Source: a virus (lineage: Duplodnaviria; Heunggongvirae; Uroviricota; Caudoviricetes). From it: a stretch of DNA of 64,000 nucleotides. Of the stretch, positions 4,141 to 64,000 are shown one piece after another (position 1 is the stretch's first letter; every line of letters begins with the position of its first letter). Under the pieces are notes generated by a model, which was given only the letters and a program-made list of their open reading frames with translations, searched no databases and had not been told where the DNA came from. The stretch is taken from IMG/VR virus record IMGVR_UViG_3300047202_000291. One strand, 5' to 3'. The position numbers and the translations under genes are program-made.

Positions 4141-4158
4141 AATTGAATGGGGTGTAAA

Positions 4159-4326: not shown

Positions 4327-4339
4327 AGGGTGAGTTTTT

Positions 4340-5254: not shown

Positions 5255-5268
5255 AGGAGGAGATAAAA

Positions 5269-5382
5269 ATGGGAAAATTGGAAAAAGCATTGAATAAATT
5301 TGCAAAATTCACTTTTGTGAAGGCACCAAAGGCAGGTGTTAAGGCAGGGAATGTAGTCAGGAAAGGCTGGAAAAAGAAGTGA
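5269..5382 (+). CDS. Small Lys-rich hypothetical protein (37 aa)
   Basis: Strong SD GAAGGAGG 8 nt upstream of the ATG. Confidence 0.3.
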   Translation: MGKLEKALNKFAKFTFVKAPKAGVKAGNVVRKGWKKK

Positions 5383-5522
5383 TTCAAAAGTAGATTTATG
5401 GCTAAAAAAAAGGAGAAGCCGATACTTGAGGAATGGATTGAAATGATTGAGGATGATATAAAAAATACAGTTAAGGAGATTAAATATTTTATTGAGCATC
5501 CAAAAAACGAGAGGAGATTAAA

Positions 5523-11834: not shown

Positions 11835-11913
11835 ATTTTTTGATGGAGAACGATTTTAAGCTTTCTATATTTTTTTGAGCAACGACAGATAGGACTTTCT
11901 GCGAGGTGTTTCT

Positions 11914-12099
11914 ATGAATGACACGCATATAGAAGAAGAAACCACAATAGGAGATTTTTTGCGTTCTCCTGATGTGATGTCCAAAGACGCATATTTGAAA
12001 CTGCGTAATTCGGGCAAATTAGACGGTAAGGTTAGTTTCCCATATGGGATAATTAAAGCCAGTAAAAAAGAGGGTGAGATGTATGGAAGAGGACTTTGA
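11914..12099 (+). CDS. Hypothetical protein
   Basis: ATG ORF on the + strand. Confidence 0.4.
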   Translation: MNDTHIEEETTIGDFLRSPDVMSKDAYLKLRNSGKLDGKVSFPYGIIKASKKEGEMYGRGL

Positions 12100-12290
12100 T
12101 GTTAAGTCTCCATTCTGTAATATCCTTTCTCCAAAGGCAGAGCATTTTGATAGATTAGAGGCGAGTTAAAATGCTTTTGCTCGATATAGAGGAGGATATT
12201 AATCAGGACTTACTTGATGGAGATGTTAAACTCATTAAGATAAATAAAAGAAAGGAATTAATCCCATTCCCAGAAGAATAGAGGTGTTCT

Positions 12291-12473
12291 ATGAAGCGAG
12301 GAACAGGATATGTAAATAACGCCAGAGGATTTACCAATACATTTCCCGACGGCGTTAAACTCGGGGCAGAAGATGTCAAAGCCAGATTGGTTTGCTATAA
12401 TTCGGCAAAGATAACTCCTGCGAAAAAAGAGAGTAGTATCGGTAGAATAATTGCCGATAGTCAAGAGCAATAA
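12291..12473 (+). CDS. Hypothetical protein
   Basis: ATG ORF on the + strand. Confidence 0.45.
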   Translation: MKRGTGYVNNARGFTNTFPDGVKLGAEDVKARLVCYNSAKITPAKKESSIGRIIADSQEQ

Positions 12474-12545
12474 AGGAATGGAATAATGTCAGGCAGGCTT
12501 ATTTCATTCCAAACTTTTTTAAATAAGATAAGCGAGGTGATTTAA

Positions 12546-12674
12546 ATGGGAGAACCAGACCAGCAGATAATATGTTCCTGCTGTGGTGAGCCAATTGGAG
12601 ATGCAGGTTTGCACGCATTACAAACAGGACATACTGCTTTTAGGTTCAATAGTTCAGCAATATACGGGGTGTAA
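12546..12674 (+). CDS. Small Cys-rich/zinc-ribbon-like protein (42 aa)
   Basis: SD GAGGTG. CSCCGEP motif. Confidence 0.4.
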   Translation: MGEPDQQIICSCCGEPIGDAGLHALQTGHTAFRFNSSAIYGV

Positions 12675-12678
12675 TCCT

Positions 12679-12792
12679 ATGAGTGACAAATGTAGTATTA
12701 AGCATTGTCGAAAAGAGAAAGAGATTACATTACCAGATGGTAGAGGACTATGTTGGGAACACTGGGAAAAGCATTGTGAGGATAAGGAATGA
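12679..12792 (+). CDS. Small Cys/His-rich protein (37 aa)
   Basis: CSIKHC...CWEHWEKHC. The track's 12583 ORF looks like a composite of this and the preceding gene. Confidence 0.35.
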   Translation: MSDKCSIKHCRKEKEITLPDGRGLCWEHWEKHCEDKE

Positions 12793-13067
12793 ACCAAAGC
12801 GAAGCTTTTAAGGACTTGGAGAATTGGTGTGCTAAATTACAGCAGAACCGATTTAAAGAGGAATTAAGGAACGAGATGAGGCGGGATGTCCATAAGCTCG
12901 TATTTACTAAGATAAATCAAGGGCTTACAATAAGCCAATTATTTGATTGGGTTGTTGAGCATGAAATGTTATTTGCAGGTTCAACTATGCAAGGACCATA
13001 TTGGGCTTACCAAGAATATGTTTCTGTTAGGCAGAAGCTTTGGGGCTTGAAGCAAAAGGTGAAATGA
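12789..13067 (+). CDS. Hypothetical protein
   Basis: ATGA start/stop overlap with the upstream gene. Confidence 0.55.
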   Translation: MNQSEAFKDLENWCAKLQQNRFKEELRNEMRRDVHKLVFTKINQGLTISQLFDWVVEHEMLFAGSTMQGPYWAYQEYVSVRQKLWGLKQKVK

Positions 13068-13203
13068 TGAAATATCTTATTAACCCAACAGATAGAGGAT
13101 GTATCGGTGTCGTGGACGCTGATGATGACGATGAGGCTAAGGAGATAGCTACGAGAAGATTCGGGCTGAGTAAAGTATGGCTTAAACAAATAAGGTGATT
13201 AAT

Positions 13204-13359
13204 ATGGTTGTTCAAAAGAAAGTTAACGCAAGGCACGGCAAAAGCTTTGCTGTATGCTTAAAATGTGGAGCTCAATTTAAACTCCGAAGAAACACCAAGC
13301 ACAGCAAACAGAAAGTGATAAAAGCCATTTGTTCAAAATGTTCAGGTGAGAAAAAATGA
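13204..13359 (+). CDS. Zinc-ribbon mini-protein (51 aa)
   Basis: CLKCG...CSKCSG (2x CxxC). Confidence 0.45.
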   Translation: MVVQKKVNARHGKSFAVCLKCGAQFKLRRNTKHSKQKVIKAICSKCSGEKK

Positions 13360-13535
13360 CTGAATTAACACCAGAGCAGGAAAACTATTTGGAAGAGCAG
13401 GCTCGGGAGAAATATCTTGAGGAGAAGCACAAGAAGGGGCTTGTCGAGTGTAAGTTCTGTGGCTTCGAGCATTCCAAAGATATTTCTTGTCCAGAGTGCG
13501 AAAGGCAATTATTTGAATATAACAAGGAGAAATAA
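13356..13535 (+). CDS. Zinc-ribbon mini-protein (59 aa)
   Basis: CKFCG...CPEC; ATGA overlap with the previous gene. Confidence 0.45.
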   Translation: MTELTPEQENYLEEQAREKYLEEKHKKGLVECKFCGFEHSKDISCPECERQLFEYNKEK

Positions 13536-13632
13536 TTTTATGTTCGACTGCACAAAAGAAAGACGGAGTGAGCGGGTGCAATTCCCGATTAAGTATTAGA
13601 AAACTCTATCAATCTGTGCATGAGGTGAAATA

Positions 13633-13770
13633 ATGAGAAAATATAGGTGCTTTCCTTGCAATAAATACTTTCCGTTAAAGGAATTAATTAAGAGAAATGA
13701 CGGAAGGCATATCGACTATGTTTGTCCGATATGCGAAAAGGTTATCATTTGTAGTGAGGGAACAAAATGA
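13633..13770 (+). CDS. Zinc-ribbon mini-protein (45 aa)
   Basis: CFPC...CPIC. Confidence 0.4.
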   Translation: MRKYRCFPCNKYFPLKELIKRNDGRHIDYVCPICEKVIICSEGTK

Positions 13771-14042
13771 AGAAGCTTGGTTTTAAGATAGGCAAGCAGT
13801 TTCTTGAATCGACCAAGAATCTTGAAGAAGGGCAGATATGGGCTACATTTAGTCCCGTTGGTTATCAGCTTGTGAAGATACGCCACATTGACAATAAAAG
13901 CGTAACTGCGAGCAGTCCATATATTGATGCCAAATTGCTTAATAACAAGCTTGAGTTCGTTAAGGATGTAATCGTCGAAATGTATTCCTTGCGTGAAGTA
14001 AGGATATACACAAAACGAAAACGGAAGAAGGTGAAGAAATGA
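13767..14042 (+). CDS. Hypothetical protein
   Basis: ATGA overlap chain. Confidence 0.55.
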   Translation: MKKLGFKIGKQFLESTKNLEEGQIWATFSPVGYQLVKIRHIDNKSVTASSPYIDAKLLNNKLEFVKDVIVEMYSLREVRIYTKRKRKKVKK

Positions 14043-14263
14043 AACTATTTTTGGCTCTGTTGATATTGTCAGTCATTGTTTTGGCTGGATGTCAAGAGGC
14101 AGATAATGGTAGCCAAAGGGTCGGAACCCATAGTTTAGGCAATGATTTAGTTATTTACACTCTTTGTGTAGATAATGTTATCTGTTATTATCATCCTGGC
14201 GGTTACGCGGGCGGTATGGATTGCTTTAGGGATGATGATTTAGTGACAAAATATTGCGGGTGA
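14039..14263 (+). CDS. Putative lipoprotein/secreted small protein
   Basis: Signal peptide with lipobox-like LAGC. Confidence 0.5.
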   Translation: MKLFLALLILSVIVLAGCQEADNGSQRVGTHSLGNDLVIYTLCVDNVICYYHPGGYAGGMDCFRDDDLVTKYCG

Positions 14264-14481
14264 AAACAATGGAGATTAATGTGAGACAAGGTTTAAATTC
14301 CTTTCTAAGCGATAGAAAGGATAGATTTCCTAATGTGACTGAGAACCAGAAGAATGAATGGGTTAAGGAAATTGAAGAGGCTCTCGTAGAATGTGTGGAT
14401 GACAATGACATTTACTATGACCACAAGCCAGATAATGTAAAGGAGATAGATGAAGAAGTGGAAGACGAGGATGAGTTATAA
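14254..14481 (+). CDS. Acidic hypothetical protein
   Basis: ATG ORF on the + strand. Confidence 0.5.
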   Translation: MRVKTMEINVRQGLNSFLSDRKDRFPNVTENQKNEWVKEIEEALVECVDDNDIYYDHKPDNVKEIDEEVEDEDEL

Positions 14482-14684
14482 TGGAACTCCATGCTTGTTC
14501 TAATTGCGGAATTGTCTTGAGCATAGAGGAGTTTTCATTTAAGGAGATGCCAAAGGATGAATATGATTCTGAGAAAGTCTTGCTTCGTGATTGCAAAGGT
14601 AAATTCGGTGTCGGCGTTAAGACTCATTATGATAGGAGTTTCATTTGTCCAGTTTGTAAAAATATAATTCGATTGGACAATTAA
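14481..14684 (+). CDS. Zinc-ribbon protein
   Basis: CSNCG...CPVC. Confidence 0.5.
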   Translation: MELHACSNCGIVLSIEEFSFKEMPKDEYDSEKVLLRDCKGKFGVGVKTHYDRSFICPVCKNIIRLDN

Positions 14685-14735
14685 TGTTCTTTAGGGGTTG
14701 TTCCCGATTTTTAAGTTAGCTACGAGGTGTTAGCT

Positions 14736-14900
14736 ATGCGAAGAAAAAAATTCTATATTTCGCAAAGGCTACGCAATGGCAATGAGAATGTTCCGATTGT
14801 CATTGGACGTTTCCAGAGCAGAGAGGATAGGAACAGGGCATTTACTGACAATAGGCTCTGGGAAAAGAATTGTTTTTGTGGGATAAGCAAAGAGGAATAA
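14736..14900 (+). CDS. Small basic hypothetical protein (54 aa)
   Basis: SD GAGGTG upstream. Confidence 0.35.
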   Translation: MRRKKFYISQRLRNGNENVPIVIGRFQSREDRNRAFTDNRLWEKNCFCGISKEE

Positions 14901-14901
14901 G

Positions 14902-15129
14902 ATGTCGTATTTTCAGGTTGGGACTGGTAGAGCCACTTGTTGCGAGTGTTATAAAAGGATTTCAAAGGGTGAGCTCGATATAGTGTTTAATTTCTATCAT
15001 GGAGAAAGGCATACTCATTGGAGATGTCTTGTTATCAAGGCAAGGAAATTTATTGATTCAACGCCACTGAATAATTCAACAGCTTTGCACACGGCGGTAG
15101 TTCAGATTCATGGGGAAAAATATGTATGA
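14902..15129 (+). CDS. Cys/His-rich small protein
   Basis: CCECYKRISKGE...HTHWRC. Confidence 0.5.
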   Translation: MSYFQVGTGRATCCECYKRISKGELDIVFNFYHGERHTHWRCLVIKARKFIDSTPLNNSTALHTAVVQIHGEKYV

Positions 15130-15138
15130 GGTGAAAAT

Positions 15139-15507
15139 ATGGAACAAATAAGAGATGCAAAAGATTTGGAGCTTAAAGAGCTTAATCAGTTTATTGGAAC
15201 TGAATGCTATCATCAGGTATATTTCGATAAAAGTATATCTGGGACGGACGGCATAGTTTACATAATGGAAAGTGGTTATAGCTGGCTTGTGACCGATATG
15301 CTTGCGGTGGTTTGCACAAAGCCAGAAATCAGGAAGCAAGAGTTCCTTGCTATTAAGCTGAAGGTTAAAGATAAGGCGGCAATAGCGACCATAGAGGACG
15401 GAAACAATCATGTTCTTTATCAGCAGGATTATAAATATACGGATGCAAAGAAAGACCTGACTTTGTTTTTAACAAACGATGTGCTGATGTTGTCGGGTGA
15501 ATATTGA
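15139..15507 (+). CDS. Hypothetical protein
   Basis: ATG ORF on the + strand. Confidence 0.55.
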   Translation: MEQIRDAKDLELKELNQFIGTECYHQVYFDKSISGTDGIVYIMESGYSWLVTDMLAVVCTKPEIRKQEFLAIKLKVKDKAAIATIEDGNNHVLYQQDYKYTDAKKDLTLFLTNDVLMLSGEY

Positions 15508-15525
15508 AGTAAAGGAGGCGTAAAT

Positions 15526-16598: not shown

Positions 16599-17450
16599 AT
16601 GCCAGAACTAATGCCGATGCTCTTGCAGGAAGTGGAATTCTCAGAGGATGTCTTTGAGAAATATAAAGACTATGTTTGGCAAGAGAAGGAAAATGGCGTG
16701 CGGGTTATGGTTCATATAAAAGACGGGAAGATTTCTGCAGTAAGAAATAGGCGAAATAATCCTGTCTTGCATTTGTATCCAGAACTAACTGCACTTGATT
16801 TTGGGAAAATTAGTGCTATCTTGGACGGCGAACTTGTTGTCTTTAAAAATAACAAGAGTGTTTTCTATGGTGGTATTAATCAAAGGGATAAGCTTTATTC
16901 AAAGGATTCTGTGGAGAAATTTCCAGTTACATTTGTGGCTTTTGATATGATTTTTCTTAATAAGGAAATTCTATTAGGTAAGCCACATAATGAGAGGTAT
17001 GAACTTTTGAATACTGGATTTCTTTCATATACTGGAAAGCACTTTGTAATCTCTGATAATATTGCTGACCCAAAGAAATACTGGGCTGAGCACGTTATTC
17101 CGGAAGGAAGAGAAGGCTTGGTGCTTAAGGATCCCAAAAGCAAATATGAGCCAAGCCAAAGGTCTTGGTCTTGGCTGAAGCTTAAGAATTATAAGGTTGC
17201 TGAAGTGATTGTCGATAGCATTGATGTCAATGTTAAGGGCAATAAGATTACTGGAAAGGCAACTATTAATTCAGAAGTGTGTATTGTTGAGTGCCAATAC
17301 GGCGGCGTGTATAATATTCAGTTAGGCGATAAGCTTCCTGTCGAATATCTTGATATTGTCGGCGGGAAACTTATTCAGCCACATAAGCCAAGAAAATGGA
17401 AGCCAGAGGTGATTCAAAATGCCAGTGAAAATGAAAGTTCCAAAGATTGA
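16599..17450 (+). CDS. ATP-dependent DNA/RNA ligase (second copy; KxNG motif-I variant)
   Basis: Motif I KENGVR, motif III ILDGELVVF, motifs V/VI LVLKDPKSKY...WLKLK. Confidence 0.7.
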   Translation: MPELMPMLLQEVEFSEDVFEKYKDYVWQEKENGVRVMVHIKDGKISAVRNRRNNPVLHLYPELTALDFGKISAILDGELVVFKNNKSVFYGGINQRDKLYSKDSVEKFPVTFVAFDMIFLNKEILLGKPHNERYELLNTGFLSYTGKHFVISDNIADPKKYWAEHVIPEGREGLVLKDPKSKYEPSQRSWSWLKLKNYKVAEVIVDSIDVNVKGNKITGKATINSEVCIVECQYGGVYNIQLGDKLPVEYLDIVGGKLIQPHKPRKWKPEVIQNASENESSKD

Positions 17451-26182: not shown

Positions 26183-26782
26183 ATGAAACCGAAACTCAGT
26201 ATAAAGTATTATCAGAACGCAGACAAGAATCATCAGGATTCTTTTTGGTATGATGGAGATATTGCATTGCTTAAATATAAGAATCGAGAAGTGCTTGTAG
26301 TCGCTGCAGGCGACATAAGGATTCACAATAAAAGAGGTGAGTTGGTCTATGATTGTAAGCCCCGCAATTCAGGATTTTCATTCAAGCTTGAGCAAGATAA
26401 AGATTTGTATAAGATAGGTAATAATTATGATGATGATTTCTATTGGGAAAATAACAACTGGTTCGAGCTCTTTTATAAGAACAAAGGAGATTCTAATTGG
26501 AATGATATTTTAGGTGATGTTTATTTTGACTATGGTGTTGTAATAAAAGCGGCGAAAGATGCAATTAAGGATGATAAATGGTGGAATGAAACCTGGAATA
26601 AAGCTACCTGTCTTGAGTGTAAGAAGGAGTTTATTCAGGAAAGGGACATTCAGCTTTGTGATGTTTGCATAAAGAAGTTCAATCTTGACAAGCTCTGGAA
26701 AGACCACGACAATAATAAAATTGATGCTCTTGATTTTAATGAGTCTAAAAAGATACGAGAAAAATATAGGGTGAAGAAATAA
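26183..26782 (+). CDS. Hypothetical protein with a C-terminal CxxC...CxxC motif
   Basis: ATG after GAGGT. Confidence 0.55.
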   Translation: MKPKLSIKYYQNADKNHQDSFWYDGDIALLKYKNREVLVVAAGDIRIHNKRGELVYDCKPRNSGFSFKLEQDKDLYKIGNNYDDDFYWENNNWFELFYKNKGDSNWNDILGDVYFDYGVVIKAAKDAIKDDKWWNETWNKATCLECKKEFIQERDIQLCDVCIKKFNLDKLWKDHDNNKIDALDFNESKKIREKYRVKK

Positions 26783-27933
26783 TGGAAGTAACACACGAAC
26801 AGTTGGCTATGCTTATTGAAGAGCACCGAAGGGCAGGGCTTCCTTTGTTTGTTGATGGTGCAACAGGCATCGGTAAATCTGAAGCTGGTATTAAGAGCAG
26901 TAAGATGTATGCTGATAGAATAAGTAGGCAATGGGTTGCTTGGGTTGATCTATCTAATTTAGATAGGCATAAGTTTCTTGATGACAAGGAGATTGTGAAG
27001 GTTCATTTATTCGTTGACATAAGGACGGCTCTTTTGGAACCGACTGACCTTCTTGGTTTGCCGTTTAAGGATGAGCGTGGTTATGTTGCTTGGTTGCCGA
27101 CTCTTCTTTTCAAGATTCTGAGTTTGCCTTCAGTTTCAGCTACTATATTCTTTGACGAATTCAATTTAGGCAGTTTGATGGTCATGAAATCCAGTTATCA
27201 GCTTATTCTTGATAAGGCCATAGGGGAAGTCAAGCTTGGTAAGGATGTTACAATTCTTGCAGCAGGAAACAGGATTGAGGATCGTGCTCACGTTACAGAG
27301 TCTCCAGCTCCATTAAACAATAGGTTTAGCCATTGCACTTTGCTTTGTCCAACTCCAGATGAGTGGATTATGTATAATCTTAAATCAGAATATCCTGAGC
27401 CAAGGCTCGTTTCTTTCATTAAGTTCAAGCCTAAATATATCTTTGACTTTAAGCCTAACCAAAAGGAGAAAGCATTTCCTACTCCGAGGGCGATTCAGCA
27501 GTTGGCTATGTTGCTTAAGGGAAAAGATGAGATGAATGAGCTCGATAATATGACCATGCTCGCCCAGGCGAAATGTGGTGATGCTTTCGGTGCAGAGTTT
27601 CAATCCTTCTTGCGTCTTACGAGGAAGGTTAATGTTGATGAGATTCTAGAGCATCCTGAAAAGGTGCATGAATTTGAAAAACAGCTTGACTTGAAATATT
27701 CATTAATCTCTGGGGTTGCCGTAAGGGTGAAGCAGGACTTCAATAAGATGGAACAGGCCCTCAAAGTTATAGCCGAGCTTGAAGATGAGTATGGTGTCTT
27801 TTTATTGAGAATGATTATTGATATTTGCGGTATGAAGGTGTTGTCCGTCCTTGAGCATAGTAAGACTTGGGAAACCAGGCTCTATGATAAGTTTAAGGAC
27901 ATATTAAGCACGAGATTTGCGCAGGTGAGTTAA
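26782..27933 (+). CDS. MoxR-family AAA+ ATPase
   Basis: Walker A DGATGIGKSE, Walker B IFFDEFN, sensor AAGNR, PLNNRF arginine-finger motif. Confidence 0.8.
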   Translation: MEVTHEQLAMLIEEHRRAGLPLFVDGATGIGKSEAGIKSSKMYADRISRQWVAWVDLSNLDRHKFLDDKEIVKVHLFVDIRTALLEPTDLLGLPFKDERGYVAWLPTLLFKILSLPSVSATIFFDEFNLGSLMVMKSSYQLILDKAIGEVKLGKDVTILAAGNRIEDRAHVTESPAPLNNRFSHCTLLCPTPDEWIMYNLKSEYPEPRLVSFIKFKPKYIFDFKPNQKEKAFPTPRAIQQLAMLLKGKDEMNELDNMTMLAQAKCGDAFGAEFQSFLRLTRKVNVDEILEHPEKVHEFEKQLDLKYSLISGVAVRVKQDFNKMEQALKVIAELEDEYGVFLLRMIIDICGMKVLSVLEHSKTWETRLYDKFKDILSTRFAQVS

Positions 27934-34088: not shown

Positions 34089-34107
34089 AGCGAAACATTT
34101 ATATATG
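34089..34107 (+). promoter_or_regulatory. Archaeal-type BRE/TATA promoter AGCGAAACATTTATATATG; near-leaderless start at ATG 34132
   Basis: BRE-like GCGAAA plus TATA TTTATATA sit 27 nt before the ATG. The same 17-mer recurs at 52879. Confidence 0.5.
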
Positions 34108-42915: not shown

Positions 42916-42965
42916 CGAAACATTTATAAACTTAATAACTTTAGTGGGTTTGATAAGGTGATAAA

Positions 42966-52879: not shown

Positions 52880-52900
52880 AGCGAAACATTTAAATATATT
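52879..52900 (+). promoter_or_regulatory. BRE/TATA-like promoter AAAGCGAAACATTTAAATATAT
   Basis: Shares AAGCGAAACATTTA.ATAT with the 34087 promoter. Nothing but a 4-codon ORF follows before the terminator. Confidence 0.45.
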
Positions 52901-57832: not shown

Positions 57833-58032
57833 GCGCAGAGGATATTTTAGAAGTGCTGAAAAAACATAAGAGAAAATGGTTTACATCAAAGCAGCTTGCC
57901 GAAGAAACCGGATTGAGCCATCAAAGTATAATTAACAGCCTAAGGGGATTGCGGAAAGCCAACAGGCTTTATTATAAGGAGGATAATAGTGGGTATTTTA
58001 AATATCAGCACAAGCCTAACGGACTTTATTAG
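57829..58032 (+). CDS. Winged-helix DNA-binding protein
   Basis: FTSKQLAEETGLSHQSIINSLRGLRKANRLY. Confidence 0.55.
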   Translation: MSAEDILEVLKKHKRKWFTSKQLAEETGLSHQSIINSLRGLRKANRLYYKEDNSGYFKYQHKPNGLY

Positions 58033-58408
58033 GCAAGGAATTTGGTTCTTTGCAATCGGCGTAATTTCAACTTTATTCGATTGGGCTTTTTTTGCAATTG
58101 GCTACAAATGGGTTTATTTGCCATATTGGGTCGCCCTAATCATTTCGTTTTCAATAGGTGCTTTCATCAACTTTAATTTGAATAAGCATCTGACTTTCGG
58201 GAACAAATCAAAGAGCGTCCTTCAGCCAATTACATTTATTATCATTGCTGGCACGATGCTTGCTATAAGCCTCGCTTTGATGGCTTATTTTATAAAGGGC
58301 ATGGATGCGATCATCGCTAGGATGATTACCACCGGAATAGTTTTTATCTGCAATTTCTTTTTGCATAAGATAATTACATTCGGGAGGCTTTTTAAAGATG
58401 GGGGATAG
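57989..58408 (+). CDS. GtrA-like membrane protein (GTG start)
   Basis: Four TM helices; INFNLNKHLTFG motif. Confidence 0.6.
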   Translation: MGILNISTSLTDFIRQGIWFFAIGVISTLFDWAFFAIGYKWVYLPYWVALIISFSIGAFINFNLNKHLTFGNKSKSVLQPITFIIIAGTMLAISLALMAYFIKGMDAIIARMITTGIVFICNFFLHKIITFGRLFKDGG

Positions 58409-58730
58409 ATGTGATTGTAATGAATATAAGCTTTATCATAAGGCTAGTGTGATATGCTTAGTTGCATTGCTCCTTCTTTTAGCCGGATTAGGTGTATTTG
58501 CACACCATGAATTTAGTCAAAAAAAAGCAGATGAGAGTTATGATATTTGTAACGCCACGATGACCGAGCGGCCCGAAATCACCGGGTTGTGGTTTGCAGA
58601 AGGATATTATTGTGTTTGGGCTGCAGGCAGGAACATTAAAAAAATAAATAAAACAGATGTGCACGAGAGTTGTCATGCTTTGATTCATGACGATCCGCAG
58701 CATTTTTGCAAGAGCTATTGTGAAAAATAA
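58398..58730 (+). CDS. Membrane-anchored Cys/His-rich protein
   Basis: TM helix; C..C...C..H..C..C. Confidence 0.5.
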   Translation: MGDRCDCNEYKLYHKASVICLVALLLLLAGLGVFAHHEFSQKKADESYDICNATMTERPEITGLWFAEGYYCVWAAGRNIKKINKTDVHESCHALIHDDPQHFCKSYCEK

Positions 58731-58931
58731 AAATGGAAAATAGAAAAATTTATAAACGTCATTGCATCACTGGTGCTTTATGGTAAGAATTAAGGGACTC
58801 ATACTGTGGTTGAAATCCACGACATCGGCTACCTTAAATAGTTCAGCGACCAGTTGCTGATCCATTTGCCATAGTTTTCTTCAATCATTATTTGCTATGG
58901 ACTTAAGATTTCTATGGCAATTTTTCACATT

Positions 58932-59089
58932 GGTTCCGTAGCTTAGCAGTTAAAGCATCTGGCCGTTAGTGCGTCCGTCACAGACCCCAAATCTGTGCAG
59001 CATCGTGACCTGCGAATAATTGTTTTGACGCGGGACAACGCAAGACAACGGTGACCAGGCGAGCCTCGGTGCAAATCCGAGCGGAACCG
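58932..59089 (+). tRNA. tRNA with an ~85-nt intervening sequence (anticodon possibly GTT/Asn)
   Basis: Acceptor GGTTCCG/CGGAACC; D-arm GCTT-AGCAGTTA-AAGC; T-arm CTCGG-TGCAAAT-CCGAG. Anticodon stem TCTGG/CCAGG flanks an insertion at 37/38. Confidence 0.5.
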
Positions 59090-59109
59090 TTTTGGGTGCG
59101 TAGGTGCGT

Positions 59110-59198
59110 AGGTGCGTAGCTCAACAAAAGAGCACCAGGCCTTTTATCAATGAAAGAAACCTGCGAGGTTGCGAGTGAGAATCTCGTCGCGCCCACCA
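59110..59198 (+). tRNA. tRNA-like element with encoded 3' CCA, preceded by GGTGCGTA x3 (identity unresolved)
   Basis: 3' CGCGCCC-A-CCA; D-arm GCTC-AACAAAA-GAGC; T-arm GCGAG-TGAGAAT-CTCGT. Anticodon region irregular. Confidence 0.3.
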
Positions 59199-59200
59199 TT

Positions 59201-59274
59201 GGGGTTGTGGGGTCTTAACAGAAACCTGTCGGTCTCCAGAACCGAAGATCCGTGTGCGAATCACGGCAATCCCA
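59201..59274 (+). tRNA. tRNA-Trp (CCA)
   Basis: Acceptor GGGGTTG/CAATCCC; anticodon arm TCGGT-CTCCAGA-ACCGA; T-arm CCGTG-TGCGAAT-CACGG. Confidence 0.7.
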
Positions 59275-59284
59275 TTTTTTTAAA

Positions 59285-59356
59285 GGGCTCTGGGTAGGGA
59301 AGCGACACGCCTCGCTTGCAACGAGGAAACAGCGCGAGCATTACGCGCAGAGTCCA
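59285..59356 (+). tRNA. tRNA-Ala (TGC)-like
   Basis: Acceptor GGGCTCT/AGAGTCC; anticodon arm CCTCG-CTTGCAA-CGAGG; T-arm GCGCG-AGCATTA-CGCGC (atypical loop). Confidence 0.35.
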
Positions 59357-59416
59357 TTATTTGTAATCATTACAAAAAATAATGATTAATAATCATATCG
59401 CGAAAAAAAGTTATAT

Positions 59417-59499
59417 GCGCAGTTGGGGAAGCGGTCAAACCCGCTCCGCTTAGGACGGAGTGCCTAGCGCTACCACAGGTTCGAATCCTGTACTGCGCA
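59417..59499 (+). tRNA. tRNA-Leu (TAG), type II
   Basis: Acceptor GCGCAGT/ACTGCGC; anticodon arm CTCCG-CTTAGGA-CGGAG; 14-nt variable arm; T-arm ACAGG-TTCGAAT-CCTGT. Confidence 0.8.
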
Positions 59500-59501
59500 T
59501 C

Positions 59502-59617
59502 GCGGACGTGTCCGAGCGGCCGAAGGAGCCAGATTCAAATAAAGGCTAAACTTAAAGCCATCGGAGAAATCTGGTGCTAAGTGCATAACAACAGCGGTTC
59601 AACTCCGCTCGTCCGCA
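59502..59617 (+). tRNA. tRNA-Leu (CAA) with an ~30-nt intron at 37/38
   Basis: Acceptor GCGGACG/CGTCCGC; anticodon stem CCAGA...TCTGG flanks TTCAAA plus a hairpin-containing insert; long variable arm; T-arm AGCGG-TTCAACT-CCGCT. Confidence 0.7.
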
Positions 59618-59621
59618 GTTT

Positions 59622-59706
59622 GCTGTGGTAGGACAACAGTAGTCCAGCTGGCCTGTAAAAAAAATCAAGTAACCAGCCAATCCCGATGCAACTTCGGGCC
59701 GCAGCT
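59622..59706 (+). tRNA. tRNA with a ~14-nt intron (anticodon probably TGT/Thr)
   Basis: Acceptor GCTGTGG/CCGCAGC; D-arm GGAC-AACAGTA-GTCC; anticodon stem GCTGG/CCAGC flanks 21 nt; T-arm CCCGA-TGCAACT-TCGGG. Confidence 0.5.
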
Positions 59707-59764
59707 TATTAATATTTCAGGCTTAAAATGTTAATCAGAAATTCCTTATTAATATTAGTGATAT

Positions 59765-59836
59765 GGAACAGTGGCCAAGCAGTAAGGCGCGAAGCTGCAA
59801 TCTTCGTATGCGAGAGTGCAATCCTCTCCTGTTCCT
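59765..59836 (+). tRNA. tRNA-Cys (GCA)
   Basis: Acceptor GGAACAG/CTGTTCC; anticodon arm CGAAG-CTGCAAT-CTTCG; T-arm GAGAG-TGCAATC-CTCTC. Confidence 0.7.
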
Positions 59837-59838
59837 TT

Positions 59839-59983
59839 GCCCGGATGATTGGGGAATCTGGTAATCCCGCTGGTCCGCTAATGCCCAGAATCGAATGGCT
59901 TAGCCCAGAATTGAATTTTGGACTTGCCCAGAATGGAACACCAGGATCGAAAGGTCATCTCGGTTCGAATCCGAGTCCGGGCG
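59839..59983 (+). tRNA. tRNA with a ~65-nt intervening sequence containing 3x GCCCAGAAT (identity unresolved)
   Basis: Perfect acceptor GCCCGGA/TCCGGGC; canonical T-arm CTCGG-TTCGAAT-CCGAG; D-arm region with GG. Confidence 0.45.
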
Positions 59984-60506
59984 TATGATTCAGAGTAAAC
60001 CATATGTGAAGACAGTGAATTATCATTGCCTTAGATGTAAATCTTAATAAATCGCATTTTAAGAGAGACTCGACGGTGATCTGTAAGACCTGTGGTTCAG
60101 AGCGTCGATGGAACCAAAAAATTTAAATATAAGTGTATGCTACAACATAAAGGATACTTGGTTTCCTTCATGCTTTCGATGCAAGGCCCGGGGAGAGCCT
60201 CAATCTCCTCATTTATATTCATTGAATAGCGGCTTCGGAAAAGGGGCTGATAACAACAGGCGAGGCTGTTGATAACCCAGTCGCTCAAAAATTCAGGTGA
60301 TTTACTTTCAATGTTAAACATGGAACAGAACGGACTGAGCATCGGAAGAACCGGGCGAACTCAAAGGAGATATATCGCCGGTTGCTTTGGGCATCAAGTA
60401 GACCAGCCCATAGTCCAATAGGCCTCTTCTGTTCCATAACAGCTTCTAAAAATTTGTGGACATTCCATTGGTTGTTTTGGAACAGCCAGAGTTCTATTCG
60501 GATTAT

Positions 60507-60578
60507 ACGGACTTAGTAGAATAGCTAGCACGCAGGGCTCATAACCCTGAGAAGGTGGCGCAATTCCACCAGTCCGTA
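60507..60578 (+). tRNA. tRNA-Met/Ile2 (CAT)
   Basis: Acceptor ACGGACT/AGTCCGT; anticodon arm CAGGG-CTCATAA-CCCTG; T-arm GGTGG-CGCAATT-CCACC; weak D-stem. Confidence 0.55.
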
Positions 60579-60606
60579 GTTATTCACACTTAACTATGAT
60601 ATGTTC

Positions 60607-60679
60607 CTGCGCTTGGTGTAACAGCTTAGCACAATTGGCCGTAGCCCAATTAGAACCGGTGCAATTCCGGTAGCGCAGA
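60607..60679 (+). tRNA. tRNA-Tyr (GTA), short variable arm (archaeal/eukaryal type)
   Basis: Acceptor CTGCGCT/AGCGCAG; anticodon arm ATTGG-CCGTAGC-CCAAT; 4-nt variable region; T-arm ACCGG-TGCAATT-CCGGT. Confidence 0.65.
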
Positions 60680-60681
60680 TT

Positions 60682-60754
60682 GGCCTCATGGTGTAACAAG
60701 TCAACATGTAAGCCTGTCAAGCTTACGCTTCGGATGCAAGATCCGATGAGGCCG
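60682..60754 (+). tRNA. tRNA-Asp (GTC)
   Basis: Acceptor GGCCTCA/TGAGGCC; anticodon arm TAAGC-CTGTCAA-GCTTA; T-arm TCGGA-TGCAAGA-TCCGA. Confidence 0.75.
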
Positions 60755-60823
60755 TTGCAGGCGTAGCTAAGCAGTCACAGCACGCAGATATGCAAAATTA
60801 TTTAAATAAGCATCATATCACAT

Positions 60824-61285
60824 ATGAATATGATGTGGAAAACATGGAAAAGAATTAGTAGGGGAGAATATTGGTTTGCAAAGATTCCAGAGCATCCTAA
60901 TGCAGATAAGAATGGATATGTGCTCGAGCATAGGATTATTATGGAAAATTTGCTAAATAGAGTATTGCAATCATCAGAAATTGTTCATCATGAAAATAAA
61001 AATACAAAAGATAATCGACCTGAAAATTTAAAATTGATGAATAAAGGAATCCATGCTAGAGAACACAATTTAGAAAGGGGGAGGATTTTTGTAAAATTAA
61101 GATGTCCTAATTGTGGAAAACAATTTATAAAGGCAAAAAATCAAACCCATCTAACAGCAAAAAGAAATTCAGCCACTTTTTGTTCATTAAAGTGTTCTGG
61201 AAAGCACAAGCACAATTACGAGCCCAATATTATTGAAGTATTCAAAACAAAAAATTCCGGAACACGAGATAAAGCAAAAATATGA
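60824..61285 (+). CDS. HNH homing endonuclease (HNH_3 family), AT-rich insert within the tRNA array
   Basis: GYVLEHRIIMENLLNR...EIVHHENKNTKDNRPENLKLM...HAREH. Confidence 0.8.
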   Translation: MNMMWKTWKRISRGEYWFAKIPEHPNADKNGYVLEHRIIMENLLNRVLQSSEIVHHENKNTKDNRPENLKLMNKGIHAREHNLERGRIFVKLRCPNCGKQFIKAKNQTHLTAKRNSATFCSLKCSGKHKHNYEPNIIEVFKTKNSGTRDKAKI

Positions 61286-61294
61286 TTCTTTTCT

Positions 61295-61407
61295 GCAGGT
61301 GTGTCCAAGCGGTCAAGGAGCCCGACTGATACGTCAAGTGTCCGGGAATTATATGTCCCCTTGACTAAGAGTTCGGGAAAGCGCAGGTTCGATTCCTGCC
61401 ACCTGCA
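61295..61407 (+). tRNA. tRNA-Ile (GAT) with a 40-nt intron at 37/38
   Basis: Acceptor GCAGGTG/CACCTGC; CCCGA-CTGATA|intron|T-TCGGG; T-arm GCAGG-TTCGATT-CCTGC. Confidence 0.65.
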
Positions 61408-61411
61408 TTTT

Positions 61412-61484
61412 GCTCCTGTAGTTAGCCTGGTTAATCACACCGGACTTTCAATCCGGAGCTCGAGTCCAAATCTCGACAGGAGTA
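61412..61484 (+). tRNA. tRNA-Glu (TTC)
   Basis: Acceptor GCTCCTG/CAGGAGT; anticodon arm CCGGA-CTTTCAA-TCCGG; T-arm TCGAG-TCCAAAT-CTCGA. Confidence 0.6.
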
Positions 61485-61485
61485 T

Positions 61486-61559
61486 GGGGTCGTAGTGTAG
61501 TTTGGTATCATCCTTCGCTTGGGACGAAGTGATCCTGCGTTCGAATCGCAGCGACCCCA
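61486..61559 (+). tRNA. tRNA-Pro (TGG)
   Basis: Acceptor GGGGTCG/CGACCCC; anticodon arm CTTCG-CTTGGGA-CGAAG; T-arm CTGCG-TTCGAAT-CGCAG. Confidence 0.75.
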
Positions 61560-61611
61560 TTCAGTTGATTATAACAACAAATATGATGATTTCGGTTGAG
61601 AATAGAAATGC

Positions 61612-61683
61612 GCGGAGGTAATTTAGTAGTAAAATGCTTCGTTGCCAACGAAGATAGCGTGGGTGCGATCCCCACCTTCCGCA
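61612..61683 (+). tRNA. tRNA-Gly (GCC)
   Basis: Acceptor GCGGAGG/CTTCCGC; D-arm ATTT/AAAT; anticodon arm CTTCG-TTGCCAA-CGAAG; T-arm GTGGG-TGCGATC-CCCAC. Confidence 0.7.
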
Positions 61684-61728
61684 TTAGATAAAAAATATAT
61701 GAAGTATGGAAAAATCTCCATACATTAT

Positions 61729-61801
61729 TGGCGCGTAGTGAAACAGACGATCACGGCAGCCTTCTAAGCTGCAGTTCCGGATGCAACTTCCGGCGTGCCA
61801 A
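61729..61801 (+). tRNA. tRNA-Arg (TCT)
   Basis: D-arm GTGA/TCAC; anticodon arm GCAGC-CTTCTAA-GCTGC; T-arm CCGGA-TGCAACT-TCCGG; acceptor TGGCGCG/CGTGCCA (one GU pair). Confidence 0.65.
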
Positions 61802-61803
61802 TT

Positions 61804-61877
61804 GCGCGCATCGGCTAATCAGGATATGTCGTCCAGCTACGGACTGGAAGGTGTGGATTCAAATTCCACTGCGCGCT
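61804..61877 (+). tRNA. tRNA-Arg (ACG)-like
   Basis: Acceptor GCGCGCA/TGCGCGC; anticodon arm TCCAG-CTACGGA-CTGGA; T-arm GTGGA-TTCAAAT-TCCAC; D-arm irregular. Confidence 0.5.
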
Positions 61878-61878
61878 T

Positions 61879-62121
61879 ATGAAATTTGAACAGCATTGCA
61901 AAAAAAGTAAGAGGCTCTTCAACGAAGATGGAGCTCTCTTTCATAGATGGATTGATATGTTCGCAGCAGAGGAAGGATATGCGCACAGGCATATCTTGCA
62001 TACATTCAAAGGAATGATACTTGGAATAGAGATATTTGGAGAAGCTGCAGGAAAGCACCTTGAGCAGCACATAAGGGATGACTTGCAATTAAAGAAGAAA
62101 GATGAGCTTCCAATATTTTAA
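61879..62121 (+). CDS. Hypothetical protein (His-rich), abutting the tRNA 3' end
   Basis: ATG 2 nt after the tRNA; 80 aa. Confidence 0.4.
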   Translation: MKFEQHCKKSKRLFNEDGALFHRWIDMFAAEEGYAHRHILHTFKGMILGIEIFGEAAGKHLEQHIRDDLQLKKKDELPIF

Positions 62122-62168
62122 ACACCTCTGAACCTGGAAACACCAGCGCGCATCTGGTCGGCGGAATT

Positions 62169-62240
62169 GAGGTCTTAGCTTAGCTAGGAGAGCACATGAC
62201 TGAAGCTCATGCTACCTGGGTGCAATTCCCAGAGACCTCA
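62169..62240 (+). tRNA. tRNA-Phe (GAA)
   Basis: Acceptor GAGGTCT/AGACCTC; D-arm GCTT/GAGC; anticodon arm CATGA-CTGAAGC-TCATG; T-arm CTGGG-TGCAATT-CCCAG. Confidence 0.75.
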
Positions 62241-62244
62241 TCCA

Positions 62245-62736
62245 ATGTACGACAAATATAAAATAATAGCGACCAAGGAAGAGTATTATGCAACTTGGGA
62301 TCGGGAGAACGTAGATATGCTTAGCGAGAGCCTCAAGGAGATGATCTATCAAAAATATTTCCTTAAGTGCATCGTCTTCCAGCGTGACAATTTTAAATGC
62401 CAGAATGAGCATTGCAAGCACGCAGATAACAGATTAACTTTACATCATATCAAGTTCAAGAAGAATAATGGTAAGGATAAGCCAAAAAATGCAGTTACTC
62501 TTTGCAAGTCATGCCATAATGCATATCACCAAGGCAAGACCATGTTGACCTTTTGGGGAATGACTTATCGGATTCAGAAGCAGGAAGGAGAAATAAATTG
62601 GAAGGCCCAGAAGGCAAAAGGCAAAACCATCAGGACTGAAAACAGAGAACATTGTGGCTTCAAAATAAGTTGGAAGCTTTTAGCTATATTGATGAGATTC
62701 CTTGAAAGAGAATATACGGAGTTGGATGATGACTGA
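62245..62736 (+). CDS. HNH endonuclease (start trimmed to the first ATG after the tRNA)
   Basis: CQNEHCKHADNRLTLHHIKFKKNNGKDKPKNAVTLCKSCHNAYH. The track start at 62209 lies inside tRNA-Phe. Confidence 0.65.
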   Translation: MYDKYKIIATKEEYYATWDRENVDMLSESLKEMIYQKYFLKCIVFQRDNFKCQNEHCKHADNRLTLHHIKFKKNNGKDKPKNAVTLCKSCHNAYHQGKTMLTFWGMTYRIQKQEGEINWKAQKAKGKTIRTENREHCGFKISWKLLAILMRFLEREYTELDDD

Positions 62737-62832
62737 GACAATCAATGAGCTGTATGATAGGCTAGGCTTACATAAATGGTGGCAAGAGCCTTTGCCAGAA
62801 AATAGCATCATAAATGATTTACCACTATAGAC

Positions 62833-62903
62833 GCGCTGCAGATGTTGAAGTAGCATACCTGCCTTCCAAGCAGGGTGGATGGGTGCGATTCCCATGCGGC
62901 GCA
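62833..62903 (+). tRNA. tRNA-Gly (TCC)
   Basis: Acceptor GCGCTGC/GCGGCGC; D-arm ATGT/GCAT; anticodon arm CCTGC-CTTCCAA-GCAGG; T-arm ATGGG-TGCGATT-CCCAT. Confidence 0.7.
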
Positions 62904-62904
62904 T

Positions 62905-62978
62905 ATGCGAGTAGTGTAACAGTTTATGCACGACAGACTGTGACTCTGTAAGATTGGGTGCAACTCCCAGCTCGCATA
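62905..62978 (+). tRNA. tRNA-His (GTG)
   Basis: Anticodon arm ACAGA-CTGTGAC-TCTGT; T-arm TTGGG-TGCAACT-CCCAG; acceptor ATGCGAG/CTCGCAT. Confidence 0.55.
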
Positions 62979-62980
62979 TT

Positions 62981-63069
62981 GGGCGAATGGTCCAATCCGG
63001 AACACGACGCCTGGCTAACAAATATTTTTAGAATCCAGGAAGCTCAAGGTTCAAATCCTTGTTCGCCCA
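62981..63069 (+). tRNA. tRNA with a ~13-nt intron (anticodon unresolved, possibly AAC)
   Basis: Acceptor GGGCGAA/TTCGCCC; anticodon stem CCTGG/CCAGG flanks 20 nt; T-arm CAAGG-TTCAAAT-CCTTG. Confidence 0.45.
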
Positions 63070-63202
63070 TAAATAAAAGCAAAGCTTTATATATATGTTC
63101 CAACATACACCCTTTATCCGATAGGCGGTATAAAGCCAAATTCGGAATAAGCGGTAAGCAAAGCTTCGTGCGACGCTAAATCCGCAACAAGGAGAGAGAA
63201 AC

Positions 63203-64000
63203 ATGGATGTGAAATATAAATACCGTGTTGAGAAAAAGATAATTAAAGCAGCAGATCTCAACAACGGCTTCTTTCAGCAGCTGCAAAACAGAAGAAAAAT
63301 AAGGTCAGCGACAGTAAAGGCAATTCTTGAGCGCCTCAATGACGGCAAGCATTTTGGAACGCCATTGCACGTGAACAAGATAGAGCGGAATGCCTATATA
63401 ATAGACGGCAACCATCGTTGGGAAGCCATTAAGAGATTCTTGGCAGAAGACCCAAATAACACAGTAGAGGTTACCTTATTTATTTATGACAACCTCACTG
63501 GAGATGAAGAGAAGGACGTCTATACGACAGTGAACAAAGCCAACAAGCAAAACACCAATGATGTGGTGAAGCAGTATGAGGATGAGATCAACATCCTTAA
63601 GTTCTTCGCCAACGGCTGGCAAGAAGGTGGCACCTTGAAGCAATTCCCTGTGGATGTGACAATATACCCTCAGCCGAACACAGTGTCGTTCTACAGGCTT
63701 GTAGGGGCTTACCTTGCATGCAAGGCACAGAATTGGTACGGAGGCTATATGGGCACGCCTTGGGAGTTTGTTGATGAGGCAAAGGGCCTTAGGCTGCAGG
63801 ATGTAAAGGAGATGTCTGCATTTATGGCTGACTTTATGCAGGCATTCGGTGGCGTAGTGAAGAACAATAACTGGCTCAGAGGCACAGCTCTTACAGCAGT
63901 GATGAAGCTCTGGATTGACAACAGGGCAAACATACCTCCTAATAGGATGGTGTGGCTCTTCGAGAAAAGGCTTTATAACGATGCTAAGGCAGTTGACTTG
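63203..64000 (+). CDS. ParB/DUF262 (DGQHR-like) domain protein, 3'-partial; higher GC than the rest of the window
   Basis: SD AAGGAGAG upstream. TPLHVNKIERNAYIIDGNHRWEAIKRF. No stop before the window end. Confidence 0.6.
   Translation, partial: MDVKYKYRVEKKIIKAADLNNGFFQQLQNRRKIRSATVKAILERLNDGKHFGTPLHVNKIERNAYIIDGNHRWEAIKRFLAEDPNNTVEVTLFIYDNLTGDEEKDVYTTVNKANKQNTNDVVKQYEDEINILKFFANGWQEGGTLKQFPVDVTIYPQPNTVSFYRLVGAYLACKAQNWYGGYMGTPWEFVDEAKGLRLQDVKEMSAFMADFMQAFGGVVKNNNWLRGTALTAVMKLWIDNRANIPPNRMVWLFEKRLYNDAKAVDL

Follow-up and report, generated by a model that had tools for sequence, protein, structure and literature searches.

The window analysed here, 64,000 nucleotides (nt) of the IMG/VR record IMGVR_UViG_3300047202_000291, carries an array of 22 transfer RNA (tRNA) genes on its + strand, at positions 58932-63069 (4.1 kb). 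Seven of these genes are interrupted at the same place in the anticodon loop, in a pairing register that matches the archaeal splice motif. We read the array as an accessory tRNA cassette of a large uncultivated archaeal mobile element, most likely a virus, with introns that would be cut by host splicing at bulge-helix-bulge (BHB) motifs, and we put the probability of this reading at roughly 0.72. The window is part of a 117,127-bp source contig, and the results on gene content refer to the window.

The array holds 22 tRNA genes

The count results from manual parsing of every candidate, with each stem verified by script. It bears out a preliminary description of the same DNA, made from the letters alone, which had estimated about 22 genes. 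They cover 19 amino acids, with one initiator-like Met; Gln is absent. The order from 5' to 3' is Asn-GTT, Lys-TTT, Trp-CCA, Ala-TGC, Leu-TAG, Leu-CAA, Thr-TGT, Cys-GCA, Ser-GCT, Met-CAT and Tyr-GTA in the first half, then Asp-GTC, Ile-GAT, Glu-TTC, Pro-TGG, Gly-GCC, Arg-TCT, Arg-ACG, Phe-GAA, Gly-TCC, His-GTG and Val-AAC. With few exceptions, the 22 genes have intact acceptor, anticodon and T stems.

ARAGORN called 12 tRNAs in its default mode and 17-19 with intron search, the latter being a check that the preliminary description had proposed. The Rfam model RF00005 recovered 16 at the gathering score and 18 at E<=1, missing Ala, Leu-CAA, Thr and Ser. The genes had also been described as packed head-to-tail. 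This is right for many neighbours, which lie 1-5 nt apart, but the packing is not uniform: two HNH endonuclease open reading frames (ORFs), an 80-aa ORF and a 523-nt non-coding spacer break up the array.

Exactly one gene has an encoded CCA, as had been announced: in Lys-TTT (59110-59195) it follows A73, and the other 21 genes are without it. The 3' end of the Phe gene is followed by TCCA. At position -1, 17 of the 22 genes have a T (binomial p ~4e-6), which can pair with A73 and so give the precursor an acceptor stem of 8 bp.

Most of the array was also found in an independent assembly. Logan contig L131 (SRR35914825_2971, 4612 bp) is 100% identical to window positions 59390-64000 and terminates one base beyond the window end. 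In the same run, SRR35914825, the window gene at 26782-27933 sits on a 34-kb contig; since pieces of the window are found on separate contigs there, the genome is fragmented in that assembly.

Seven genes are interrupted between nucleotides 37 and 38

The interrupted genes are Asn-GTT (58932-59089, intron of 85 nt at 58969-59053), Lys-TTT (13 nt at 59146-59158), Leu-CAA (59502-59617, 29 nt at 59540-59568), Thr-TGT (59622-59706, 14 nt at 59658-59671), Ser-GCT (59839-59983, 58 nt at 59881-59938), Ile-GAT (61295-61407, 40 nt at 61332-61371) and Val-AAC (62981-63069, 13 nt at 63021-63033). The preliminary description had already placed inserts of 40, ~30, ~14, ~13, ~65 and ~85 nt at this site; its list agrees with ours, to which one further insert is added.

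In all seven genes a 5-bp anticodon stem encloses six loop nucleotides before the insert and one after it, and excision restores a loop of 7 nt. The inserts are accordingly assigned between nucleotides 37 and 38. Archaeal introns at this position are recognized through a 4-bp helix that takes in the first two bases of the anticodon and has on either side a 3-nt bulge with a splice site (PMC4090602). We tested the corresponding register, in which nucleotides 32-35 face the four intron bases preceding the 3-nt bulge formed by the last two intron bases and nucleotide 38. It yields 23 of 28 possible pairs: Asn and Val have a central helix of 4/4, the other five genes, Leu-CAA among them, one of 3/4. 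Twenty-seven shifted registers gave 7-19 pairs, and none of 20,000 intron shuffles reached 23. The examination of exon-intron junctions for BHB motifs, suggested at the outset, thus came out in favour of such motifs.

The motifs are of a relaxed rather than a strict form, because introns of 13-14 nt leave no space for an inner helix; the Lys, Thr and Val introns have none. The Ile intron forms the full helix-bulge-helix-bulge-helix arrangement (hBHBh'), in which the anticodon stem and an inner helix of 6 bp are 7 nt apart on each strand. The inner helix of Asn has 2 bp, or 5 bp if an extra bulge is allowed. The Leu-CAA and Ser introns contain internal hairpins that do not stack directly on the bulge. 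Relaxed motifs suit an endonuclease of broad specificity better than the strict euryarchaeal homotetramer, and an enzyme of the broad type would be the better match for this array.

Once the introns are removed in silico, Asn, Leu-CAA, Thr, Ile and Val are recognized by ARAGORN at its default settings, each with the anticodon expected. Asn (C33, T-loop TGCAAAT, 44.6 bits in Rfam), Leu-CAA, Ile and Val are also found unspliced by ARAGORN with the -i option, Val by Rfam as well, and Ile scores 56.7 bits in Rfam. Thr, with C33 and U73, was located by manual parsing, and its spliced form is a perfect cloverleaf. Lys, with C33, scores 31.3 bits in Rfam; it has an A1xC72 mismatch and degenerate D- and T-loops, and ARAGORN did not call it, in-silico splicing included.

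Ser-GCT (long variable arm, G73, C33) was likewise parsed by hand, and its spliced form folds as a cloverleaf. Three extra nucleotides (ATT) stand between its position 9 and the D-stem. They are the cause of a mis-parse by ARAGORN, which proposed a Ser-GGA with an intron at position 26 at 59839-59983; we re-parsed this candidate as Ser-GCT with a 37/38 intron. That intron, 59881-59938, consists mostly of three direct repeats of GCCCAGAAT-GAA.

A group I intron is a self-splicing ribozyme with a core of roughly 200 nt or more. Such introns, or a position outside BHB-compatible sites, had been named as findings that would speak against an archaeal array. Group I introns are ruled out here by insert sizes of 13-85 nt together with the lack of any Rfam match: no intron family was reported in 58000-64000 at E<=1.

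Identity elements of the tRNAs

We compared the genes with the identity elements tabulated by domain of life by Giegé and Eriani (PMC9976931). tRNA-Tyr(GTA) (60607-60679, supported by ARAGORN, Rfam and the parse) has C1:G72, A73 and a 4-nt variable region, the archaeal/eukaryal set, where bacteria have G1:C72 and a long arm (PMC9976931); the short arm had been noticed in the preliminary description, and the first base pair adds to it. tRNA-Trp(CCA) (59201-59274; Rfam 29.2 bits, relaxed ARAGORN, parse) shows the archaeal G1:C72, G2:C71 and A73 in place of the bacterial A1:U72 and G73 (PMC9976931). Both tRNA-Gly genes, GCC at 61612-61683 (ARAGORN, Rfam, parse) and TCC at 62833-62903 (Rfam 29.7 bits, parse), have A73, C2:G71 and G3:C70, again archaeal, while bacterial tRNA-Gly has U73 (PMC9976931).

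tRNA-Pro(TGG) (61486-61559; ARAGORN, Rfam, parse) combines A73 with G1-G3:C70-C72, its acceptor strand GGGGTCG pairing with CGACCCC. The combination is archaeal, the bacterial set having C1:G72 and the eukaryal one C73 (PMC9976931); both of the latter are therefore excluded for this tRNA. In initiator tRNA-Met, A1:U72 with three G:C pairs next to the anticodon loop is the archaeal/eukaryal pattern, the bacterial one being C1xA72. The single tRNA-Met(CAT) of the array (60507-60578; ARAGORN, Rfam, parse) shows A1:U72 and an anticodon stem whose last three pairs, adjoining the loop, are G:C. Altogether, the tRNAs are built for an archaeal cell, and we hold the word "archaeal" with high confidence.

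Expression signals

GGAG or GAGG occurs 4-17 nt upstream of 48% of 133 ORFs, as against 9.5% at random positions, with a G-rich peak at -11 to -6 before the starts, and 17 gene pairs overlap by 4 nt in the ATGA manner. Given these Shine-Dalgarno sites and overlaps, a eukaryotic host is excluded.

The preliminary description had also invoked promoter motifs. The pattern RAAANNTTTAWA, which resembles an archaeal transcription factor B recognition element (BRE) joined to a TATA box, has 13 matches (4.6 expected), all but one of them on the + (coding) strand. Copies of the motif (C)GAAAnnTTTAWA include 34092-34103, 42917-42928, 52883-52894 and 58743-58754. The last, GAAAAATTTATA on the + strand, matches RAAANNTTTAWA and is a candidate archaeal promoter ~180 nt upstream of the first tRNA gene. 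Sigma-70-type promoters are not enriched in the window (56 against 52.6 expected), nor are intrinsic terminators (19 against 14.6). The copies at 34092 and 42917, the two that we checked, end ~30-40 nt upstream of a start codon, with a Shine-Dalgarno site in between.

Genome context, viral nature and host

The window has 38% GC, a strong positive GC skew and a preference for U-ending codons. It is 82% coding, with essentially all genes on one strand, and most of them are small ORFans. Recognizable products are two ATP-dependent ligases, a small topoisomerase IB, three HNH endonucleases, a HIRAN protein, a 1328-aa Kelch-repeat protein, an amidoligase, MazG, LemA, SPFH, GtrA and a ParB-like protein. 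Matches to PHROGs include the ATPase phrog_1297, phrog_1314 and the ParB-like protein, and are strong for a MoxR-like ATPase and a DUF2201/VWA protein. The segments 154-7105 and 16599-17450, with the Kelch-repeat protein (1328 aa), the two ATP-dependent ligases and the topoisomerase IB (249 aa), recall large eukaryotic DNA viruses, in an element whose expression signals are clearly prokaryotic.

Scans with Pfam and PHROGs of ~77 ORFs from the window and 10 from related loci revealed no capsid, portal or terminase gene, and no splicing endonuclease, RtcB or CCA-adding enzyme either. A Hjc-type resolvase, which the preliminary description had counted among the archaeal traits, did not turn up among the ~77 window ORFs scanned with Pfam. 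That description had called the element an archaeal virus. The archaeal half of this stands, by introns, identity sets and expression signals; the viral half finds no capsid, portal or terminase gene in the window. "Virus" consequently rests on gene organization and phage-type accessory genes. The gene content is of the kind usual for the early or accessory part of a large tailed virus, and we consider the element to be a virus with moderate confidence.

Viral nature and host lineage are both inferred. The LigD-like ligase has its nearest named relatives in Thermoplasmata, Aenigmatarchaeota and Micrarchaeia, and the search with LemA gave no informative relative names. The gene immediately downstream of the array encodes a ParB/DndB-like protein; a relative with 46% identity to it is found on a 3.6-kb contig from a metagenome-assembled genome of Candidatus Woesearchaeota, the one contig returned by a scan of a genome collection. 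Homologues of this ParB-like neighbour lie on short contigs without arrays, and a scan of metagenomes returned only relatives without the array. The 50,697 phage records of INPHARED gave no match by blastn or tblastn, and IMG/VR none for the upstream 303-aa protein or for the exact tRNA-Val and tRNA-Met strings.

A collinear relative without the array

Between window position 44.5 kb and the GtrA gene at 58.4 kb, the contig Ga0315289_10003181 (L008/L134; L008 below) is collinear with our sequence. Collinearity resumes from tRNA-Val to the ParB-like gene, whose products are 94-97% identical. In between, L008 positions 11500-15434 stand against window positions 58457-62964: a HAD hydrolase and two N6/N4 DNA methyltransferases replace 21 tRNAs and the HNH genes. 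It follows that the 21 tRNAs form, with the HNH genes, an accessory block whose gain or loss is recent, and their replacement by methyltransferases shows how fast such arrays come and go.

The sole tRNA of L008 at the array site is a Val-AAC (15435-15508) with the same acceptor stem as the window's Val. This gene is intron-free. Its anticodon and T stems are not the same in sequence as in the window copy, yet they are fully paired in both genes. Judging from the two copies, the presence of the Val intron is variable between close relatives.

Proposed maturation pathway and rival explanations

We now propose a pathway for the array. The 22 genes would be transcribed from archaeal BRE/TATA-type promoters as several polycistronic precursors, which host RNase P and tRNase Z would cut. 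The splicing endonuclease of the host would excise the seven 37/38 introns at their relaxed BHB motifs, and its ligase would join the halves. Since 21 of the 22 genes have no CCA, the host is proposed to add it. Archaeal-type synthetases would then charge the mature tRNAs, and the AT-rich element would gain a nearly complete decoder set of its own, to its benefit. The HNH genes would be homing-type selfish inserts, as in phage tRNA arrays.

Several observations weigh against this picture. Three genes are weak tRNA calls. Lys reaches 31 bits in Rfam with a degenerate elbow. Ala-TGC (59285-59356), with a weak D-arm, the T-loop AGCATTA and no Rfam match, is found by relaxed ARAGORN and the parse, though the alanine mark G3:U70 is present. 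Ser depends on the manual parse and on the minimum-free-energy fold of its spliced form, a cloverleaf in which the variable arm is long. A single mismatch is present in five of the seven central helices, and the shortest introns lack an inner helix; a strict-BHB endonuclease of the euryarchaeal type might not cut them. In the 64-kb window and the related loci examined, no capsid, portal, terminase or integrase gene was found. The searches made in INPHARED and IMG/VR yielded no relative. The host lead, Woesearchaeota, is weak, resting on one 3.6-kb binned contig.

Some features of the tRNAs are also unusual for Archaea. tRNA-His(GTG) (62905-62978; ARAGORN, Rfam, parse) has U-1 and A73 and no encoded G-1, where archaeal genes have an encoded -1 residue and C73; the absence of an encoded G-1 together with A73 is a eukaryal or alpha-proteobacterial pattern (PMC9976931). 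Two tRNAs, Arg-ACG (61804-61877; ARAGORN, Rfam, parse) and Val-AAC, have A34 anticodons, which are rare or never allowed in Archaea, where G34 reads pyrimidine-ending codons (PMC8879553). A comparison of codon usage with the anticodon set, as had been recommended, shows that the codons cognate to these two tRNAs are preferred in the genome: GTT makes up 44% of Val codons and CGT is the commonest CGN codon. The anticodon of Val-AAC is probably selected, since a Val-AAC gene also occurs in the relative L008. Five tRNAs (Asn, Lys, Thr, Ser and Tyr), and the Val of L008 as well, have C33 in place of the near-universal U33. The array tRNAs are not simple copies of host genes. The A34, His and C33 misfits nevertheless leave the archaeal assignment in place, because the Pro set, the Shine-Dalgarno sites and the intron type oppose the other domains.

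The same tRNA biology would hold if the element were archaeal yet not viral, that is, a large plasmid, another extrachromosomal element or an integrated island. The missing virion genes are what one would then see, in the window and in the related loci, and so are a ParB-like gene adjoining the array and the membrane or housekeeping-like genes LemA, SPFH and GtrA. We nonetheless find this rather unlikely: the part seen, 64 of 117 kb, resembles the early or accessory half of a large virus in its unidirectional small ORFans, HNH genes sit inside the tRNA array next to a repertoire of MazG, DNA ligases and PHROG-matching ATPase and VWA proteins, and the window has neither a plasmid-typical replication and partition set nor cellular core genes. 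Another explanation accepts the element and doubts the introns. If some or all inserts stayed unspliced, the interrupted genes would be decaying pseudogenes and the 15 uninterrupted tRNAs alone functional. Tandem duplications at the Lys 5' end ((GGTGCGTA)x3) and in the Ser intron (three repeats) could be read as traces of such decay, as could the orphan 5' tRNA fragment at 60757-60787, the poor calls for Lys and Ser, and the mismatches in most central helices. Random damage would not, however, yield the same position and pairing register in 7 of 7 inserts (0/20,000 shuffles). The exons of the interrupted genes keep intact stems, and these genes are the sole copies for Asn, Lys, Thr, Ser, Ile and Val in a set that otherwise has one gene per amino acid; decay is in our view improbable.

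Origins outside Archaea fare worse still. For a bacteriophage, for example of an unusual bacterial lineage with odd-looking tRNAs, one can cite Arg-ACG, which is a bacterial/eukaryal form, the tRNA-His with A73 and without G-1, which occurs in some alpha-proteobacteria, the elbow with G55 and without GG that is common to IMG/VR arrays with bacterial features (see below), and HNH genes in tRNA arrays, which are phage-typical. Yet the Tyr, Trp, Gly, Pro and initiator sets (A1:U72, not C1xA72) are non-bacterial, and by these identity elements the phage explanation is largely refuted. Inserts of 13-85 nt, moreover, cannot be group I introns, and Rfam detected none; there is no excess of sigma-70 promoters or terminators, and no similarity to the 50,697 phage records. 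We regard a bacteriophage as very improbable. A eukaryotic virus with a tRNA cluster of the giant-virus type, its 37/38 introns cut by the eukaryotic endonuclease, is hardly credible either and comes last in our estimate. It would account for the eukaryote-style A34 of Val-AAC and Arg-ACG, for the eukaryal tRNA-His pattern (A73, no encoded G-1), and for the topoisomerase IB, ATP-dependent ligases and Kelch-repeat protein, all common in large eukaryotic viruses. It is contradicted by the strong Shine-Dalgarno signal and the 17 ATGA-type overlaps; tRNA-Pro has A73, not the eukaryal C73, the genes are tiny, tightly packed and one-stranded, and the named protein relatives are archaeal.

A variant tRNA elbow

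In 14 of the 22 array tRNAs, position 55 is a G (T-loop mostly TGC, otherwise CGC, AGC or TGA). Twelve of these 14 have AG where the D-loop GG is expected, and all eight tRNAs without G55 (seven TTC, one TCC) keep the GG; over the 22 tRNAs the association of G55 with a non-GG D-loop has a hypergeometric p of ~1.4e-4. It looks as if the two positions of the G18:U55 tertiary pair covary.

A pattern search of IMG/VR recovered the same elbow variant in five other viral arrays (L036, L051, L103, L114 and L115). Among 65 tRNAs at those loci we counted 29 TTC with GG, 26 TGC without GG and three exceptions. Several of these arrays have bacterial features, namely encoded CCA and a long-arm Tyr. Because other IMG/VR viral arrays have it, the variant is not specific to this element; it seems to go with viral tRNA arrays in more than one domain. 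We found no description of a G55/A18 elbow in the open-access literature searched.

Comparison with known systems and significance

The closest known counterpart is HGTV-1 (Hagravirus capitaneum), a haloarchaeal myovirus with the largest known archaeal virus genome, 143.9 kb, and a record set of 34-36 tRNA genes, one of them with an intron and one amino acid uncovered (PMC13532342, PMC8651126). It also encodes RtcB, a CCA-adding enzyme and Rnl2 ligases, and for its tRNAs a role in bridging codon usage or in keeping translation going has been suggested (PMC13532342, PMC8651126). The two share a large genome, a near-complete tRNA set of their own and the presence of introns. The present array is smaller, with 22 genes, but seven of them are interrupted instead of one. 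It also differs in its 38% GC, its origin from non-halophile metagenomes, the lack of detectable kinship to known phage or archaeal-virus records, the absence of tRNA-processing enzymes from this window, its A34 anticodons and its interspersed HNH genes. The preliminary description held that such arrays are rarely reported in archaeal viruses, and the literature agrees (PMC13532342, PMC8651126).

With the intron-bearing tRNAs of cellular Archaea the array shares the insert one nucleotide 3' of the anticodon and the 3-nt bulges with their splice sites (PMC4090602). It differs in lying on a mobile element and in its relaxed motifs, with a mismatch in 5 of 7 helices. The usual intron-bearing tRNAs of Euryarchaeota are Met and Trp, and the species interrupted here (Asn, Lys, Thr, Ser, Ile, Val and Leu) are others.

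Arrays of large phages (T5-like, T4-like and huge phages) resemble this one in their head-to-tail order, single orientation, about one gene per amino acid, homing-type HNH genes between the tRNAs and nature as accessory cassettes, and the phage-like arrays of IMG/VR also in the elbow variant. What sets the present array apart is its archaeal identity elements and introns predicted to be spliced by proteins at BHB-type motifs, not group I introns; in addition, CCA is mostly encoded in the phage-like arrays that we examined, and not here. Chloroviruses and other giant viruses have clustered tRNA genes too, some with small 37/38 introns. They differ from our case in that it has prokaryotic expression signals and an archaeal, not eukaryal, tRNA-Pro. 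The array is thus a variant of a known phenomenon, virus-borne tRNA sets, and is uncommon without being unprecedented; in the open-access literature searched, no archaeal virus was described as having an intron-rich tRNA array.

Virus-encoded tRNAs are almost unstudied in Archaea, HGTV-1 having the only well-known large set. With BHB-type introns in a third of the tRNA genes of a non-halophile element, it is predicted that viral tRNA maturation can depend on host splicing. The seven precursors are a ready substrate set for comparing endonuclease specificities, strict and relaxed, and domain-specific identity elements can serve as a host-range marker for sequences without database relatives. 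The A34 anticodons, the G-1-less tRNA-His and the G55 elbow suggest that viral tRNAs may escape or bypass host systems.

A bolder version of this idea, which we offer as speculation and think rather doubtful, is that the array does more than supplement codon usage: a large virus of Woesearchaeota-like (DPANN) archaea would have in it a tRNA pool of its own, semi-independent and deliberately unlike that of the host. If so, the A18/G55 elbow of 14 tRNAs, C33 in five, the unmodifiable A34 matched to U-ending codons and the tRNA-His without G-1 would confer insensitivity to tRNA-targeting defences of the host, or independence from its modification enzymes. The BHB introns would at the same time tie viral tRNA maturation to a broad-specificity splicing endonuclease of the host, and the elbow variant, being present in bacteriophage arrays too, would be the sign of a viral strategy that spans domains.

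Other genes and elements of the array

The features that follow all lie on the + strand, like the tRNAs. Six further tRNA genes were found alike by ARAGORN, Rfam and the manual parse: Leu-TAG, with a long variable arm (59417-59499), Cys-GCA, with U73 (59765-59836), Asp-GTC, with G73 (60682-60754), Glu-TTC (61412-61484), Arg-TCT (61729-61801) and Phe-GAA (62169-62240). The tandem repeat at the start of Lys spans 59095-59119 and copies the 5' end of that gene; Tandem Repeats Finder reports its three units with 100% matches.

The non-coding spacer between Ser and Met (523 nt, 59984-60506) is structured, with a folding z of -3.0 against shuffles, and has no Rfam family. An 11-bp stem closes a 118-nt element within the spacer (60320-60437; z = -3.6), and the core of this stem, GGAACAG/CTGTTCC, is identical to the tRNA-Cys acceptor stem. 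The 118-nt element displays a CTTTGGG loop, containing the Gln anticodon UUG, on a 5-bp stem with a 12-nt insert. We considered it as the missing tRNA-Gln and rejected it: D- and T-arms are absent, the pairing in the BHB register is poor and no model supports it.

A tRNA-like 5' fragment read from the sequence at 60757-60787, just upstream of the first HNH ORF, consists of an acceptor strand, a D-arm and one anticodon-stem strand. It was rejected as a split-tRNA half, there being no 3' partner and no CGCCTGC anywhere in the window. The fragment resembles the D and anticodon arms of tRNA-Met, and also segment 62408-62452 inside the second HNH ORF.

The first HNH ORF (60824-61285, 153 aa) matches Pfam HNH_3 with E = 9e-7. 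The 80-aa ORF (61879-62121) has a weak match to DUF6915, and the same protein is encoded on Logan contig L131. The second HNH ORF (62246-62736) matches Pfam HNH with E = 5e-7; its listed start, 62209, falls inside tRNA-Phe, and the ATG at 62246 is the likelier start.

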